Shown: positions 19,566 through 27,863 of the stretch, piece by piece | Layout of the letters: each line of letters starts with the position of its first letter | Numbering within the stretch: position 1 is the stretch's first letter | NCBI RefSeq assembly: GCF_030013595.1 | Contig: NZ_CP122768.1 | DNA from: Escherichia coli | Lineage (GTDB): Bacteria > Pseudomonadota > Gammaproteobacteria > Enterobacterales > Enterobacteriaceae | Strand: one strand, 5' to 3' | DNA length: 64,000 nt | Program-made: the position numbers and the translations under genes | The notes under the pieces: model-generated | The model's input: the letters and a program-made list of their open reading frames with translations, nothing else | The model's database searches: none | What the model was told of the DNA's origin: nothing

Positions 19566-20416
19566 AGCGACTCCTTGGTGATGTATACTCGGGACCGATC
19601 AGCGAATATTGATCAGCTTCCATAGCGTCAGTGTCGTTGGTCTTTCCTCATCACAAGTTTGGTCACTTGTGATAAATCCGAATGGTTTGGTCGCCGTTCG
19701 GGGTAACTGGCCCGCCTTGTGCGGGTCTTTTGCTATCTAAAGGGTGCCGGTTACGTTTCCGGCGTCGTTATGTTTCCATCACGACCGTACGGGGCTGGTC
19801 TTTCCTGTTTTGAGCTGGTCAGGCTCATGGTCAACGCTGGTCAGGCGTGGTACTTCCTCCGGTCTTTCCCTGGTGTCACGCTGCGGGTTTGGCCTCTCCT
19901 GTTGGGGACTCAGGCACAGCGATAAAACCTGGCTGTGTGAAAAAATGGCCCATCGTGCGGACTGGGCAAAGGCTAAACACAGCAAATTGATGATGGGCGC
20001 CCGGAATCGAACCGGGTAACGGGCAGGGAGTTCCCGTTAAACACCTGTTCACCACAACCGGGAGCGCACTCCGCCATTTCAAAATTTAACGACAAAGCTC
20101 AAAGTTGAGTCGATGAAGTGCGCTCTCGTGTTGTAGCCAGGACTCTTCCCTGGTGGTCACACCGTATCGCCTTGATGGTGAATCAATCGCTCATACCTGG
20201 CTGTGGCTTGCACATTCCGGCTAGCTGCTATGGAGACAACGCGTTAAGGCTCCGCTTCCATCCAGACCGCTTCGACACATGTGCCATATGCCGGCGAAGT
20301 CTTTCCCTCTGTCATCGTGTTGGCGCCGACGCGCAAAATTTGATGCCGTCTTTCCGGCTGTCAGAACGTGTTTCTGAACAACTGCCGCTGGGTAAGCGTT
20401 GTTGATGAAAGTGACT

Positions 20417-20436
20417 TTACAATTTGTATTTGTAAT
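20417..20436. promoter_or_regulatory. Putative left operator (OL-like) palindrome
   Basis: ttacaatttgtatttgtaat with TTACAA / TTGTAA half-sites, same half-site as at 21010..21048 on the other side of the repressor gene. Confidence 0.4.
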
Positions 20437-20561
20437 GGTCAACGTATTTTTAAAAAATAATTTGTAGTTAGGGGCAAAAAAATATTCACTGTGTAAAGGT
20501 GTTTTTGTGTTAGGGGGAAAGTTGCATGCCAGCAGCGGCTGGCCTGGAAATTTGAACTGAA

Positions 20562-20975
20562 CTATTTTGTCTGGTTTTTGGCTTCAAGTAGTTCTTTTAG
20601 CAGTAGATCGAAGTGCTCTCTTTTTTCTTTTAGCTCATTGATTAATTTATTTTTTTCGCTCTCAGGCAGTCCTCTGAATAGTTGCAGTAGAGCCTGTTCT
20701 TGCGGGGTTAGTTCTTGATTGTAATTACCCGGGTGTAGCGTGGATTCATCCAAATATTCACCTTCATTCATGAAGAAAAAATGAACAGGGTATCCGGTCA
20801 CTTTTGCTAGCTTGTCTAATTTATCTTTTCTTGGAGTTACCCCATTACACCATGCCTGAACTGATTGAGCCGTAACCCCAATATGGCGAGCTAACTCAGA
20901 TTGAGACCAGCCTAAGTCTTTTAGAATCCGTTGTAGTCGGCTAGCAAAAGCCATGTTTTTCGTTTTTGTGTTCAT
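20562..20975 (-). CDS. Prophage repressor (CI/RacR-like, XRE-family HTH)
   Basis: HTH LGWSQSELARHIGVTAQSVQAWCNG; divergent from cro-like gene; exact start uncertain (track ORF extends to 20990 with TTG). Confidence 0.6.
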   Translation of the reverse strand: MNTKTKNMAFASRLQRILKDLGWSQSELARHIGVTAQSVQAWCNGVTPRKDKLDKLAKVTGYPVHFFFMNEGEYLDESTLHPGNYNQELTPQEQALLQLFRGLPESEKNKLINELKEKREHFDLLLKELLEAKNQTK

Positions 20976-21009
20976 ACCGTAAGGATACAAGGTTTAATTG
21001 TAGGGAGCA

Positions 21010-21048
21010 TTGCAAATATAATTTGTAATTACAGTTATGATTTGTAAT
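21010..21048. promoter_or_regulatory. Putative right operator region (OR-like) between repressor and cro-like gene
   Basis: ttgcaaatataatttgtaa palindrome plus a second atttgtaat half-site. Confidence 0.45.
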
Positions 21049-21073
21049 GATGGCGCGGACACAAGGAGTCCAT

Positions 21074-21304
21074 ATGGATAAACAACTGCAAGACAAAATT
21101 CTTTCCGTAATGAGTCAATCCGAGTTAGGGCGGCGATTAGGGAAAAAACCACAAACGGTAAGCCTCTGGTTCAAAGGAAGGGTTCCCGGTGAAGAGGTTT
21201 TGCGCACATCTGAAGCTCTTGAATGGCGCGTGACCCCCCATGATCTTAGACCGGATCTTTACCCAAACCCAGATGACAGCTTGCCTAAAACGAAAGCAGC
21301 TTAA
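21074..21304 (+). CDS. Cro/YdaS-like HTH regulator
   Basis: AAGGAG RBS before MDKQLQDKIL...; HTH SQSELGRRLGKKPQTVSLWFKG; divergent from repressor. Confidence 0.55.
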   Translation: MDKQLQDKILSVMSQSELGRRLGKKPQTVSLWFKGRVPGEEVLRTSEALEWRVTPHDLRPDLYPNPDDSLPKTKAA

Positions 21305-21362
21305 CTGTTGGTGAGCCCCAAATCTGATTAAGCGTAATCAATTTTTAGCGACAGGAGACGCT

Positions 21363-21839
21363 ATGGAAAACCAAGAGGAATTACAAAAAGAGATTTTGAC
21401 CTGGGCGGCAAGGGCAGGGCAGGAACTCGTCACGATTGAAATCTGCCGGGCCTGGTTCAGTCAGGGACGCAATGATGAGTTGAGACTACATGAATTTGAG
21501 GACGCGGACGGCAATGTGGACTGGAGAGCCATCAACAACAATCGGCAGAAAATCTTTCGCTGGTTACGTGGCGAGACAACGGCGGCGCGCCGAAAAACTC
21601 AGGTGCTGGCCAGTGTGATGAAAGCCGTGCTACCCGCAGAACGGCGGGCGCGTCTGGAGTCGCCGGGCGATCCCGTTTTGCTGGCAACGCTGGCGGCAAA
21701 AGAAGGGGTGGAAGCGATTAACGCTGTACATCTCCACTTCGCGCCAGAGATAACTATTCAGGAAATTGACGAAGCAATAGCGGCGCTGGTAGCGACGCGA
21801 GGGGCAGTGATAAGCACTGCGCAAGGCCATCATGCATGA
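21363..21839 (+). CDS. YdaT-like / CII-like early regulator
   Basis: 158 aa; ...NRQKIFRWLRGET... resembles Rac YdaT as I recall; position after cro. Confidence 0.45.
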   Translation: MENQEELQKEILTWAARAGQELVTIEICRAWFSQGRNDELRLHEFEDADGNVDWRAINNNRQKIFRWLRGETTAARRKTQVLASVMKAVLPAERRARLESPGDPVLLATLAAKEGVEAINAVHLHFAPEITIQEIDEAIAALVATRGAVISTAQGHHA

Positions 21840-21878
21840 GCGCCTGACCAGCGTTTAACTTATACCGAGGAAAGACCG

Positions 21879-22103
21879 ATGTTAAGACATATTGACCGCA
21901 TTACCTGGCGTAACGGCTGGCACCTGAATGGACGCCCGGCACATGTTGCAGAGATCCAACCTATTTTTGATGGGCGTATGGCTGCCGCGCTTTCGGTGTG
22001 GGAGCAGTATGAATCCAGGAAGGTCGAGTTGCGCGACAAAGGGCTGAGCAATGCGGACTATGAAGCCGGTTGTCGTCAGATAGCCGAAGCTCTGGAGATC
22101 TGA
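21879..22103 (+). CDS. Hypothetical early protein
   Basis: 74-aa ORF preceded by the recurring ACCGAGGAAAGACC leader motif. Confidence 0.4.
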   Translation: MLRHIDRITWRNGWHLNGRPAHVAEIQPIFDGRMAAALSVWEQYESRKVELRDKGLSNADYEAGCRQIAEALEI

Positions 22104-22105
22104 GT

Positions 22106-23182
22106 ATGAGTCGTTTGCTGATTAACGAAAACCCCCTTCAGGTCCTGCCCACGTTGGCATGCACTATAGGGTTGAATGAAGCCATCGTTCTACAGCAAAT
22201 CCACTACTGGCTGAATTCATCTCAAAATTTCTTCGAAAATCGCCACTGGGTGTACAACAGTGTGACCGATTGGCAAGAACAATTCCCGTTCTGGAGCGAG
22301 TCGACAATAAAACGCGTGCTGGCCAATCTGGAAAAATTGAATGTGGTATTTACTGGGAACTTTAACAGTGATGCCTGGGATAAAACCAAGTGGTATTCAA
22401 TCAATTATGCCCAGTTATGTAAGATTGAAGAGACAACATTCCCTGTGGCCAATCGATTAGGTCAAGTTGACCCAATCGAAGAGGTCAATGTGACCCAAGC
22501 ATCAGGTCAAGTTGACCCATGCGCTAAGGTCAAAATGACCCAATCTCTTACAGAGAATACAACAGAGAGTACTACAGAGAGTACTACAGAGATAAAAGAT
22601 CCCCCTTACCCCCAAAAGGGGGAGGGCGAGGAAATCATTCTCGCTGACGCTCAAAAAGCTCTGAACTACTACAACGAGAAAGTCGGTACACGCTGCCGCG
22701 ACGTTAAACCGTTTGTCATGCTGCTGACTGCCACCACCACCCGCGCTGGTTACAGCGTGGCTGAGATTCAGTTAGTAATTCGTTGGGTTATTGCGACATG
22801 GCGCCGTCGTAGCGGAAGCGTGCCGAAACCTGCGAACATTTGCCGCGTAAACCGGTTTGACGGATATCTGGCTGACGCTGAGGCGTGGGCCACTGCTGAG
22901 GCTGCCGTTGACCCTGCTGAAGTTGTGAAGGGCTACAACGAGATTCTGGGCGACCTGCTACCTATAGCTGAAATTGATACTGACCGCCGTCGGGCAATCC
23001 TGCGCCTGCTGGCACATATGCGCACGCAAACTCTTGGCGCATTTATCGGCTACTTCGAAAAATTCCGCGATAACGCCCCAGACTTCTATTTCGGCGGCGA
23101 ATATCGCACCGGCTGGCGGGCAGGGTTTGATTACCTGATGAAGCCAGAAACACTGCGTAAAACCAGGGAAGGGGCATTATGA
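22106..23182 (+). CDS. Replication initiator (lambda O-like, ori iterons inside the gene)
   Basis: GGAG RBS before MSRLLINENPL...; four GGTCAA-NN-TGACCCA iterons and a TESTTESTTE-encoding repeat in mid-gene; followed by helicase. Confidence 0.6.
   Translation: MSRLLINENPLQVLPTLACTIGLNEAIVLQQIHYWLNSSQNFFENRHWVYNSVTDWQEQFPFWSESTIKRVLANLEKLNVVFTGNFNSDAWDKTKWYSINYAQLCKIEETTFPVANRLGQVDPIEEVNVTQASGQVDPCAKVKMTQSLTENTTESTTESTTEIKDPPYPQKGEGEEIILADAQKALNYYNEKVGTRCRDVKPFVMLLTATTTRAGYSVAEIQLVIRWVIATWRRRSGSVPKPANICRVNRFDGYLADAEAWATAEAAVDPAEVVKGYNEILGDLLPIAEIDTDRRRAILRLLAHMRTQTLGAFIGYFEKFRDNAPDFYFGGEYRTGWRAGFDYLMKPETLRKTREGAL
22460..22543. repeat. Origin iterons: 4 copies of GGTCAA(NN)TGACCCA at ~23-bp spacing
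   Basis: ggtcaagttgaccca / ggtcaatgtgaccca / ggtcaagttgaccca / ggtcaaaatgaccca, followed by (actacagagagt)n. Confidence 0.6.
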
Positions 23183-24570
23183 ATCCAGAAGAACTGGAAG
23201 CGATCGTTCTCGCTGGTCTGATTAACGGTGGCGCGACGCCTGACGCGTTTGATGTGATTGCCACTACTCCGGAGGAAGCCTTCAGCATCGTGTTTCACCG
23301 TCGCGCTTTCAGCGAAATCAAAAAGCAGGCACTGGCGAACGGCATGATCGACATGTTGTTTATCAGCGAAGCGCTGGGCGGTTCCAGCCTTGCGGATCTG
23401 TCTCAAATATCCCGGATCCCGGCAACGGTACCGAATCTGAAAGGCTATGCCGGGAAAATGGTGCGGGCATGGCGGAGCCGCAAAATGGCGGCATTGTTGC
23501 AATCTGGCGCGGATGGTATCCGTAACGCTGTAAACCAGAGTCAGCGTGATGAGGTTATTGAATCTCATGTTGCTCAGGTGCTGGATATGAGCGCCGCTAC
23601 CGGCACAGTCCAGCCGGTACACATCAAAGAGCTGTTACCGCTCTACATTGACACCGTTGATAAACGGATGTCTGGCGACGCGCAGGAAATGATGCTGAAA
23701 ACCGGAGTCGAGGATCTGGATGTCGCCCTGGGCGGTATCAACATGACCGACCTTGTTGTGGTTGCCGGTCGTCCAGGCATGGGGAAAACGGAATTTACCC
23801 TGAAGATTATCGATGGCGTTACCGCAGATGGCGGCGGCGCACTGTTTTTCAGCATGGAAATGGGCGCTCAGCAGATTGTTGAACGTACCGTTGCCGGGGC
23901 TGGGAATATGTCCACGTCGCGTCTGCGTAATCCAAAAGAAATGGACGATGAGGATTTGACCAGATTAACCGCCGCGCTTGCAATCATGCAGGATCGCGAT
24001 ATCTGGATTGTTGATGCCACTGATTTGACGATTGAGCAGATCCGCGCCATTGCAGAGACTCATAAACGCCGTTATCCGCACCTGAAGTTGATTGGTGTTG
24101 ATTACATGGGCCTGATCAAAAAACCGAAGGCCGAGCGCCACGATCTCGCTGTCGGGCATATCTCCCGCAACATGAAGACTATGGCCATGCGTCTGCATAC
24201 CCCTGTTTTTGCTCTTAGCCAGCTTTCCCGCCAGGTGGATTCTCGACCTGCTGGCCAGCGTCGCCCGGTGATGTCGGACCTGCGCGATTCCGGCAGTGTT
24301 GAGCAGGACGCTGACAGCATTTTGTTTTTGTACCGCGATGAAGTTTACACACCTGATTCACCTGCAAAGGGTATCGCCGAGGTGATTATCGGTAAAAACC
24401 GTTCTGGCGGGGCAGGTGAAATTATTTATCAGGAATTCCGGAATGGGCATTTCCTGCCAATTGATCAACACGTAGCACGCGAAAAATTACGCATCCAGAA
24501 GGAGGCAGAGCAACCGAGAAAACGTGAAAAACGGTATTCAAACAAAAACTTTAATACGGACCCATTTTAA
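23179..24570 (+). CDS. Replicative DNA helicase (DnaB family)
   Basis: 463 aa; Walker A GRPGMGKTEF, DnaB-like C-terminal motifs (SQLSRQVDSR, DLRDSGSVEQDADSILFLYRDEVY). Confidence 0.8.
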   Translation: MNPEELEAIVLAGLINGGATPDAFDVIATTPEEAFSIVFHRRAFSEIKKQALANGMIDMLFISEALGGSSLADLSQISRIPATVPNLKGYAGKMVRAWRSRKMAALLQSGADGIRNAVNQSQRDEVIESHVAQVLDMSAATGTVQPVHIKELLPLYIDTVDKRMSGDAQEMMLKTGVEDLDVALGGINMTDLVVVAGRPGMGKTEFTLKIIDGVTADGGGALFFSMEMGAQQIVERTVAGAGNMSTSRLRNPKEMDDEDLTRLTAALAIMQDRDIWIVDATDLTIEQIRAIAETHKRRYPHLKLIGVDYMGLIKKPKAERHDLAVGHISRNMKTMAMRLHTPVFALSQLSRQVDSRPAGQRRPVMSDLRDSGSVEQDADSILFLYRDEVYTPDSPAKGIAEVIIGKNRSGGAGEIIYQEFRNGHFLPIDQHVAREKLRIQKEAEQPRKREKRYSNKNFNTDPF

Positions 24571-24608
24571 CCACGCATGACCAGCGTGAAATAACCGAGG
24601 AAAGACCA

Positions 24609-25019
24609 ATGACCACCATTTCAGGCAAATTAGAGTACCCGTCGGACAAAGGACACATAGACGACGGTAAAAACTATCTCGACGTCATTTTGTGGAATAT
24701 GAACGCCGGGCCACGTGCGCGCACTCGTGCGGTTTTTGTACCAAGACCCAAAGCAGGCAATTTTTCAACACCAGCTCAGCCTGCCCGTCAGGCATCCGTA
24801 GCCGCAGCGCCAGCAGTGAAATGTAAGGGTAAAACGCACATCGGGATCGCGATTCGCAGAAATGGTGAGCGGCAAGTGAAACTCCACGAAACAGCGACAA
24901 CCTGGTGTGCTTCACCGCATGAAACTTACGACAAGATAACCGGGCAGCGCATTGGTGCGCCTGGTCGCTGTCGCCTGCTGTTGAGCTCCATCACTCCGAT
25001 AGAAAAGAAAGGGGCGTGA
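24609..25019 (+). CDS. Hypothetical nin-region protein
   Basis: 136-aa ORF preceded by ACCGAGGAAAGACCA leader motif. Confidence 0.4.
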   Translation: MTTISGKLEYPSDKGHIDDGKNYLDVILWNMNAGPRARTRAVFVPRPKAGNFSTPAQPARQASVAAAPAVKCKGKTHIGIAIRRNGERQVKLHETATTWCASPHETYDKITGQRIGAPGRCRLLLSSITPIEKKGA

Positions 25020-26649: not shown

Positions 26650-26976
26650 ATGACTAAAAATACTCGTTTTTCCCCCGAAGTCCGTCAGCGGGCGATTCGT
26701 ATGGTTCTGGAAAGTCAGGATGAATATGACTCACAGTGGGCGGCAATTTGTTCCATTGCCCCAAAGATTGGCTGTACGCCGGAGACTCTGCGTGTCTGGG
26801 TTCGCCAGCATGAGCGGGATACCGGGGGCGGTGATGGTGGGCTCACCAGCGCTGAACGTCAGCGTCTGAAAGAGCTGGAACGTGAAAATCGTGAACTGCG
26901 CCGCAGTAACGATATCCTTCGCCAGGCTTCCGCTTATTTTGCGAAGGCGGAGTTCGACCGCCTCTGGAAAAAATGA
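26650..26976 (+). CDS. IS3-family transposase OrfA (HTH)
   Basis: [41 protein letters not shown]...; ends in AAAAAATGA frameshift window (A-run 26968-26973). Confidence 0.85.
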
Positions 26977-27863
26977 TGCCACTGCTGGATAAGCTGCGTG
27001 AGCAGTACGGGGTCGGACCGGTATGTAGCGAACTGCATATTGCCCCGTCAACGTATTACCATTGTCAGCAACAGCGACATCATCCGGATAAACGCAGTGC
27101 CCGTGCGCAGCACGATGACTGGCTGAAGAAAGAGATACAGCGCGTATACGATGAAAATCACCAGGTATACGGTGTGCGTAAAGTCTGGCGTCAGTTGTTA
27201 CGGGAAGGTATCAGAGTGGCCAGATGCACTGTGGCACGTCTCATGGCAGTTATGGGACTTGCCGGTGTTCTCCGGGGTAAAAAGGTCCGCACTACCGTCA
27301 GCCGGAAAGCCGTTGCCGCAGGCGACCGCGTAAACCGTCAGTTCGTGGCAGAACGACCTGACCAGCTGTGGGTGGCTGATTTTACTTACGTCAGCACATG
27401 GCAGGGCTTCGTCTATGTGGCGTTTATCATTGATGTGTTTGCCGGATACATCGTGGGGTGGCGGGTCTCATCGTCTATGGAAACGACATTCGTGCTGGAT
27501 GCGCTGGAGCAGGCGTTGTGGGCCCGTCGTCCGTCTGGCACCATCCATCACAGCGATAAAGGCTCTCAGTATGTGTCACTGGCCTATACGGAGCGACTAA
27601 AAGAAGCCGGATTACTGGCATCAACAGGGAGTACAGGCGACTCGTATGACAACGCGATGGCTGAGAGCATCAATGGTCTTTACAAAGCGGAGGTAATACA
27701 CCGTAAGAGCTGGAAAAAACGTGCAGAAGTGGAACTGGCCACACTAACGTGGGTGGACTGGTATAACAATCGACGATTGCTGGGAAGGCTGGGCCATACT
27801 CCTCCGGCAGAAGCAGAAAAAGCTTATTATGCTTCCATCGGAAACGATGATCTGGCAGCCTGA
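26973..27863 (+). CDS. IS3-family transposase OrfB (DDE catalytic domain), -1 frame relative to OrfA
   Basis: 296 aa with DDE integrase-core-like region (...[31 protein letters not shown]...[10 protein letters not shown]...[15 protein letters not shown]). Confidence 0.85.

Follow-up and report, generated by a model that had tools for sequence, protein, structure and literature searches.

In bacteriophage lambda the replication origin lies in the middle of the gene for the initiator O; O binds the iterons, the adjoining A+T tract unwinds, and O binds A+T-rich single-stranded DNA (PMC7466680; PMC3349717). Here we describe an arrangement of this kind in a lambdoid prophage of Escherichia coli, within the gene for a 358-residue replication initiator on contig NZ_CP122768.1 (the 64,000-nucleotide stretch of DNA that was analysed is called the window, and all positions are counted from its first letter). 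We propose that positions 22459-22626, in the part of the gene coding for the interdomain linker, are very likely the vegetative (theta-type) replication origin of this prophage, a proposal built on sequence comparison. Origin function is favoured because the architecture matches that of lambda and P22 and because the comparative evidence across homologues agrees.

The annotated lambda origin contains four iterons (ATCCCTCAAAACGAGGGA) that start at O residues 117-139, span residues 117-144, and are spaced 20/24/23 nucleotides (nt) apart; they are followed by a 41-nt tract of 78% A+T and 73% purine (ACACAAAAGACAC...ACAAAAGA...) and then by an inverted repeat. The origin of P22 has four iterons (TTTACCnnATCGGTAAAAC) at residues 118-146 of gp18, again with 20/24/23 spacing, followed by two copies of ACAAAAGACAATAT and by CCCCCTTACCCCCTAAAGGGGG, which ends the annotated rep_origin. 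A third system is that of the RepA_N plasmids, whose iterons form semi-palindromes and converge on an A-tract (PMC7145576). One of these plasmids, pSK41, has four Rep boxes in the middle of rep, to which Rep binds through its first 120 residues; if Rep is provided in trans, the linker that the boxes encode can be done without, and the C-terminal domain can be exchanged (PMC5703833). Initiators of the DnaD-like or "replisome organiser" type (PHROG 428 and 6493) are found in phages of Firmicutes, for which no experimental origin mapping was found in the literature.

Architecture of the putative origin

Four AGGTCAAnnTGACCCA repeats occupy 22459-22542 inside the initiator open reading frame (ORF), with a spacing of 23/22/23 nt (Table 1). 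Each takes the form of a GGTCA-N3-TGACC palindrome with internal dyad symmetry around an A-tract. The original prediction of four iterons about 23 bp apart is borne out by exact GGTCAANNTGACCCA matches on the + strand starting at 22460, 22483, 22505, and 22528, and the array exceeds anything seen in shuffled sequence: with up to two mismatches allowed, the iteron core has seven matches in the 64-kb window, a number reached by 0 of 100 shuffles (mean 1.24). Six of the seven are the four sites themselves, two of which, being palindromes, match on both strands, and the remaining one (61013, two mismatches) looks like chance. Tandem Repeats Finder describes the array as 4.3 copies of a 23-nt period at 22449-22545. 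At the protein level the iterons fall at residues 119-146, and all repeats at about residues 119-163 of 358, between the modelled N-terminal domain (residues 1-115) and the C-terminal homology region. The translation is GQVDP for iterons 1 and 3 and, in another frame, (E/K)V(N/K)(V/M)TQ for iterons 2 and 4. Because 22-23 nt is no whole number of codons, and neighbouring iterons are indeed translated in two different frames, the repetition belongs to the DNA and not to the protein.

The short tandem repeat that had been noted after the iterons within the same ORF was likewise recovered, by Tandem Repeats Finder, as 3.7 copies of a 12-nt unit, TACAGAGAGTAC, with 90% matches at 22549-22592, encoding the peptide LTENTTESTTESTTEI. 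The 55 nt in which it lies (22546-22600), promoter-distal to the last iteron, are 65% A+T and 67% purine on the + strand; in a duplex-stability profile, some of the gene's 40-mers of lowest stability fall within them. The first CAGAGA of the tract stands 13 nt after the CAAAATG of iteron 4, and the same fixed distance is kept in relatives from Firmicute phages. The 12-nt tract stands where lambda and P22 have their A+T tracts and is a candidate unwinding and helicase-entry tract, an assignment weakened by its modest A+T content.

The extent given to the origin by the original prediction, 22460-22600, took in the iterons and the tandem repeat and omitted a third element, the C5/G5 inverted repeat CCCCCTTACCCCCAAAAGGGGG at 22601-22622 (hereafter the C/G element). 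Its hairpin has a predicted energy of −8 kcal/mol on the + strand and −10.2 kcal/mol on the − strand (z −3.15). No exact DnaA box (TTATNCACA) occurs in 22300-22700, where a single site with one mismatch was found (22405-22413); the window as a whole holds 62 DnaA-box matches against 55 expected by chance, which is no enrichment.

An independent observation concerns the interior of the array. A type I-E CRISPR (clustered regularly interspaced short palindromic repeats) spacer of E. coli TC24 (NZ_CP171637.1) is 100% identical to 22511-22543, from the interior of iteron 3 through iteron 4 (L092 1201-1233), and in the window AAG, the canonical I-E protospacer-adjacent motif, stands before the protospacer. 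The identity of the spacer implies that E. coli has acquired immunity against the putative origin of this replicon.

Conservation among homologous initiator genes

Homologues of the initiator were collected from annotated phages (of Klebsiella, Hafnia, Staphylococcus, and Bacillus, and Lactobacillus phage mv4) and from 80 viral contigs, giving 69 distinct genes. A CAGAGA or CCAGAGA motif is present beyond the N-terminal domain in 65 of the 69, and in nearly all of these 65 it is preceded by three to six clade-specific palindromic iterons at 22-23 nt spacing. Iterons are therefore not missing from homologous initiator genes; arrays stand at the same place in genes from two phyla. Around a common CAAAATG core the outer bases differ by clade (GGTCAAnnTGACC, GTACCCAAnTTGGGTAC, GTATCAAAATGATAC, GTTCAAAATGAAC, TGCTCAAAATGAGCA, and GGACAAAATGGCC), the types including GGTCAA, GTACCCAA, and GTATCAAAATGATAC, a pattern that fits iterons carrying the replicon specificity.

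Close relatives of the window differ from it by whole in-frame units. Most E. coli copies (1065-nt variants), as well as the 354-residue homologue L009, have one 12-nt unit fewer, and in the contig IMGVR_UViG_3300000059_000099 (L010) an in-frame duplication of 45 nt has raised the number of iterons to six. The same unit-wise variation separates lambda, with four iterons, from the Stx phages, with six (PMC7466680).

The tract after the last iteron reads CCAATACCAGAGACTACACAGAGACTACTACAGAGA in Firmicute relatives and CTTACAGAGAATACAACAGAGAGTACTACAGAGA in enteric ones, and its CAGAGA DNA is translated as PIPE(T/N)TQR in some genes and as TNTRDYTE in others. The two frames are used 15 and 11 times among 26 representatives (homologues sharing <85% identity in the N-terminal domain), and 96 and 24 times among 120 loci with the exact Firmicute form. 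Core columns of the element are 70-99% conserved, compared with 39% identity at third codon positions of the N-terminal domain, and no relaxation at third positions is seen within the element. Between the window and Klebsiella phages, whose N-terminal domains are about 40% identical, DNA similarity is limited to 22453-22584. These data mark the 12-nt repeat as a DNA element under conservation rather than an incidental feature. One variant (L021) has ACACAAAAGA in place of ACACAGAGA; since ACACAAAAGA is the form found in lambda and P22, this suggests that the lambda/P22 and CAGAGA kinds of tract are related.

A second and very common enteric branch was observed in E. coli prophages with dicC/YdaT-type immunity (L089 and L090). 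It has five iterons of the GGTCAAAATG type and two to four CAGAGA units, without the C/G element, and in place of the helicase gene the initiator is followed by DUF977 (L089) or by an "ATP-binding protein" gene (L090). Two viral contigs (L057 and L085) contain N-terminal domain homologues without a CAGAGA element; no iteron array is visible downstream of the N-terminal domain in L085, and the origins of both may lie outside the gene.

The C/G element in other phage genes

An exact scan for CCCCCTTACCCCCNAAAGGGGG returned 56 viral stretches representing 34 distinct contexts, all but one within an open frame and most of them after visibly repeated sequences of many kinds. The element is read as TPLPPKGG in 18 contexts, as PPYPQKGE or PPYPPKG- in seven, and as TPLTPQRG in six. 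In a Pfam scan of ten carriers the N-terminal domains were Phage_rep_O, HTH_36, DUF1376, DUF6291, or none, combined with several C-terminal sequences. Counting the family of the window, iteron arrays precede the element in genes with at least five unrelated kinds of N-terminal domain, and all three frames are used; its carriers, metagenomic contigs among them, appear to come from several bacterial phyla. A looser scan of viral sequences for C5N3C5N4G5 was swamped by homopolymer runs and was used after these had been filtered out. Among the matches listed, 54 contexts were then obtained, with TTA as the commonest spacer, and upstream repeats (an 8-mer present at least three times in the 160 nt upstream) were present at 21 of the 51 contexts that could be used, compared with 11 of 1020 control positions (Fisher p = 1.6e-22).

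In the searchable literature, which leaves older subscription papers on P22 outside, no description of the motif or its peptides in a phage context was found. CCCCCTTACCCCC appears there only in vertebrate mitochondrial control regions and in one unrelated bacterial paper. The mitochondrial motif resembles conserved sequence block II, a C-run/G-run sequence that helps form the replication primer. The likeness of the C/G element to this block may be coincidental. Our preferred guess is that the C/G element belongs to the opened region, as its boundary or as a hairpin.

Domains of the initiator

The protein consists of an N-terminal winged-helix domain, the linker whose coding sequence bears the putative origin, and a C-terminal domain like that of P22 gp18. 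Its parts have different relatives: a Staphylococcus phage protein shares 52% identity with residues 1-142 and proteins of other staphylococcal phages share 59-60% with residues 1-104, while a Stenotrophomonas phage protein shares 72% with residues 165-358. The C-terminus (residues 268-358) is 38% identical to P22 gp18 over 92 residues (blastp, E = 2.6e-17) and matches PHROG 345, "O-like" (E = 1.6e-22). Judged by these matches, the gene encodes a mosaic initiator. The N-terminal family is itself found joined to P22 gp18-like, TIGR02220, or DnaD-type C-termini.

The N-terminal domain is the part for which the label "O-like" given to the ORF does not hold. Architecture and C-terminus agree with that label, but the N-terminal domain has no detectable homology to lambda O: profile comparison by hhalign with lambda O and with P22 gp18 gave a probability below 1%, and 28 members of the N-terminal family scanned against Pfam gave weak, generic winged-helix matches only, with no Phage_rep_O match at E values up to 1. 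None of the members scanned matched Pfam RepA_N. The whole initiator has no Pfam match at E up to 0.01 and no NCBIfam match, and a sequence search of the PDB with the N-terminal domain returned nothing useful. The top structural matches of the predicted domain are RepA_N initiators (4pql, 4pt7, and 4pta); they resemble it only modestly, and the scores of generic winged-helix proteins are almost as high. The predicted fold looks closest to the RepA_N plasmid initiators, with a RepA_N/DnaD-like appearance. Some residues of the helix 65-77 vary with the iteron type (e.g., Tyr73 with GTATCAAAATGATAC), but this pattern is confounded by phylogeny and is not relied upon.

Comparison with lambda, P22, RepA_N plasmids, and Firmicute phages

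The arrangement of lambda, with the origin inside the initiator gene, was recognised in the original prediction and stands up to a feature-by-feature match with the annotated origins of lambda and P22. As in lambda, the putative origin lies in the linker-coding middle of the gene, with four iterons that have dyad symmetry around an A-tract (lambda ATCCCTCAAAACGAGGGA; window AGGTCAAAATGACCCA) and lie at the same residues (117-144 in lambda; 119-146 in the window). A purine-rich A+T tract and then an inverted repeat follow on the same side, and the protein is divided into an N-terminal half that binds, or in the window would bind, the origin and a C-terminal half for the partner. Lambda differs in its N-terminal domain, to which that of the window shows no detectable similarity, and in the partner, which is a loader of the P type in lambda and a DnaB-type helicase in the window. 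The tract of the window is 65% A+T and made of 12-nt CAGAGA units, whereas that of lambda is 78% A+T, and a GTCAGAG...CTCTGAC repeat takes in lambda the position that the C5/G5 repeat has in the window.

P22 shares with the window the pairing of an initiator gene (18) with the phage's own DnaB-like helicase gene (12), the helicases being 46% identical (E = 1.8e-136), as well as the homologous initiator C-termini. The iterons lie at nearly the same residues, a short tandem repeat (ACAAAAGACAATAT, two copies) lies in the A+T tract, and the sequence CCCCCTTACCCCCTAAAGGGGG at the end of the P22 rep_origin is one base off CCCCCTTACCCCCAAAAGGGGG of the window. In contrast, the P22 iterons (TTTACCnnATCGGTAAAAC) and the Phage_rep_O-type N-terminal domain are unrelated to those of the window, and the C/G element is read in another frame (TPLPPKGG in P22; PPYPQKGE in the window).

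The best structural matches of the N-terminal domain are RepA_N proteins (pSK41, pTZ2162, and the Vibrio cholerae PLE RepA), and the iterons of the window, like those of the RepA_N plasmids, are central in the gene, semi-palindromic, and converge on an A-tract. The C-terminal domain of pSK41 Rep, however, binds host primase, whereas that of the window is gp18-like and paired with a phage helicase. The Firmicute DnaD-like initiators have the same layout of iterons plus CAGAGA repeats, and the N-terminal domain of the window shows 52-60% identity to its counterparts in Staphylococcus phages (StauST398-3, SP276) and 42-50% to those in Bacillus phages. In the Firmicute phages, by contrast, it is joined to DnaD-type or TIGR02220 C-termini, with separate helicase loaders.

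Proposed mechanism and weight of the evidence

The four dyad-symmetric iterons would be bound by dimers of the N-terminal winged-helix domain; because of the spacing of two helical turns, the dimers would all come to lie on the same side of the double helix, and by bending the DNA they would form an initiator-origin complex. This complex, together with negative supercoiling and rightward transcription through the gene, may destabilise the tract at 22546-22596. The C-terminal gp18-like domain would then recruit the phage DnaB-type helicase and load it onto the opened strands. The C5-TTA-C5-AAAA-G5 element may mark the far edge of the opened region, either as a G+C clamp or as a hairpin offering helicase or primase a junction of single strand and duplex. 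On this scheme the iterons would provide replicon-specific recognition, and the A+T tract and C/G element would be shared parts.

Several observations weigh against the assignment of 22459-22626 as origin or against parts of it. The tract is only 60-65% A+T, compared with 78% in lambda; its stability is in the least stable 5-8% of the 40-mers of the window and not extreme; and the DNA immediately upstream of the iterons is as unstable. Being only moderately unstable, the 12-nt tract would not be singled out by duplex stability alone. The conservation of CAGAGA could reflect common descent with the N-terminal domain, because 118 of 120 carriers have a domain of the window type and the other two are truncated; for the same reason, recognition by that domain and inheritance with it are inseparable in this set. 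The roles proposed for the C/G element are guesses. No experimental work on this replicon or on any member of its N-terminal domain family was found in the searchable literature.

Alternative explanations

One alternative takes the repeats as no more than a low-complexity linker of the protein (GQVDP/EVNVTQ, TESTTE), the DNA itself having no function. Stretches rich in Thr, Glu, and Pro are typical of flexible linkers, and the copy number does differ among strains, but the linker explanation is already contradicted by a period that is not a multiple of three and by iterons lying in different frames. It would further have to explain why CAGAGA DNA is conserved while encoding either PIPE(T/N)TQR or TNTRDYTE, why the C/G element encodes TPLPPKGG, PPYPQKGE, or TPLTPQRG, and why third positions are not relaxed; we regard it as hardly credible. 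The iterons might also be real binding sites of the initiator with a regulatory purpose (autorepression, titration, handcuffing, or phage exclusion), replication starting elsewhere, for example in the A+T-rich immunity region. Iterons of plasmids and of lambda do act as regulatory or inhibitory sites as well, cloned lambda iterons inhibit the replication of phages that have the lambda replication region (PMC3349717), and the least stable DNA of 20000-25000 is near 20420-20450 and 21010, outside the gene. Yet these unstable stretches between genes are the divergent promoter/operator regions that one would expect there, and the position, number, spacing, orientation, and flanks of the iterons match the mapped origins of lambda, P22, and pSK41. 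Regulation and origin function can coexist, and a purely regulatory role seems improbable.

Two further explanations concern the elements beyond the iterons. That the CAGAGA repeats and the C5TTAC5NA3G5 element are kept mainly as recombination joints, for swapping modules that consist of the N-terminal domain plus iterons and of the helicase-recruiting part, and have no working role in initiation, is the likeliest of the alternatives, though it is still rather unlikely. Both elements lie where homology between genes breaks, as in the DNA similarity to Klebsiella phages confined to 22453-22584; one N-terminal family occurs with three kinds of C-terminus (P22 gp18-like, TIGR02220, or DnaD-type); and in one locus (L120) a different N-terminus is joined to CAGAGA repeats, to the C/G element, and to a C-terminus like that of the window. 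Near-exact conservation across phyla, however, requires selection on the sequence, and the CAGAGA repeats keep a fixed distance from the last iteron and stand where lambda has the A+T tract that unwinding requires (PMC7466680). Here too the two roles can coexist. An action of the C/G element in RNA or transcription, as terminator of a leftward transcript, source of a primer 3′ end, or seed of an R-loop, is somewhat less likely again. The minus strand does offer a terminator-like hairpin with a T-rich tail at 22623-22600, and the hairpin is more stable on this strand (−10.2 kcal/mol, z −3.15), but terminator-like matches in the region are no commoner than in shuffles (3 vs 3.2), several carriers (e.g., L095 and L101) have no T-rich tail on the minus strand, and a promoter scan near the origin found no leftward, internal, or antisense promoter.

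Significance

An origin inside its initiator gene, in the layout of lambda and P22, is known and will be ordinary to specialists; what is different here is the iteron-binding domain. What draws attention is that two sub-elements are conserved at the DNA level between different reading frames, families of initiator, and groups of hosts, the CAGAGA repeats being conserved from Staphylococcus to E. coli phages. As a tentative generalisation, on which we place limited confidence, such origins may combine replicon-specific iterons with two DNA parts of a generic kind, so far undescribed in that capacity: the 11-12-nt CAGAGA repeats and C5-N3-C5-N4-G5. Should the C/G element be recognised by something that all these hosts share, or form an obligatory DNA structure, phage theta-type origins would have a near-universal sequence signature and could be predicted from sequence alone. 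The shared sub-elements are candidates for what origin opening and helicase entry need in sequence, and would provide a practical finder for in-gene phage origins. For the locus itself, the result would pin down the origin and likely incompatibility determinant of a prophage type common in E. coli, in which most copies of the gene are annotated only as "hypothetical protein." The family also offers a natural series of matched pairs of N-terminal domain and iteron for studying how the specificity of winged-helix initiators evolves.

Genomic context and distribution

The rightward early operon has the order repressor, cro-like gene, cII-like gene, a 74-residue ORF, initiator, and DnaB helicase (Table 1). 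The 74-residue ORF (21879-22103), between the cII-like gene and the initiator, matches PHROG 2465 ("unknown function," E = 8.8e-42) and has the position of P22 orf48.

The 358-residue gene is 100% identical in two E. coli isolates from pigs and 98.7-98.9% identical in about 20 further complete genomes; it was matched in 74 of 5426 complete E. coli genomes. Of the same 5426, 1978 contain a related origin segment, in genes that usually bear the label "hypothetical protein" or "phage replication protein O."

Table 1. Positions of the putative origin elements and of the surrounding replication and immunity genes in the window
Feature	Position	Strand	Basis or remark
Repressor gene	20562-20990	−	
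cro/YdaS-like gene	21047-21304		
cII/YdaT-like gene	21363-21839		
Initiator gene, 358 aa	22106..23182	+	ORF list, ATG at 22106; PHROG 428 "replication initiation protein," E 1.5e-72
Coding region of N-terminal DNA-binding domain, about aa 1-115	22106..22450	+	Modelled winged-helix domain
Iteron 1, AGGTCAAGTTGACCCA	22459..22474	+	Frame 0, GQVDP
Iteron 2, AGGTCAATGTGACCCA	22482..22497	+	Other frame, EVNVTQ
Iteron 3, AGGTCAAGTTGACCCA	22504..22519	+	GQVDP
Iteron 4, AGGTCAAAATGACCCA	22527..22542	+	Same frame as iteron 2; adjoins A+T tract
Purine-rich, moderately A+T-rich tract of 12-nt units (TACAGAGAGTAC, 3.7 copies)	22546..22596	+	Candidate unwinding/helicase-entry region
C5/G5 inverted repeat, CCCCCTTACCCCCAAAAGGGGG	22601..22622	+	Read directly; extended hairpin 22603-22626
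Coding region of C-terminal domain, aa 268-358	22907..23179	+	Homology to P22 gp18 C-terminus; presumed helicase recruiter
DnaB-type replicative helicase gene	23179..24570	+	Pfam DnaB_C 2e-69, DnaB 5e-07; start overlaps initiator stop codon

About 2 kb downstream of the replication module, at 26650-27863, two overlapping ORFs (108 and 296 residues) resemble the orfA/orfB pair of the IS3 family, presumably an element like IS629/IS1203, and the prophage may be disrupted at this insertion.

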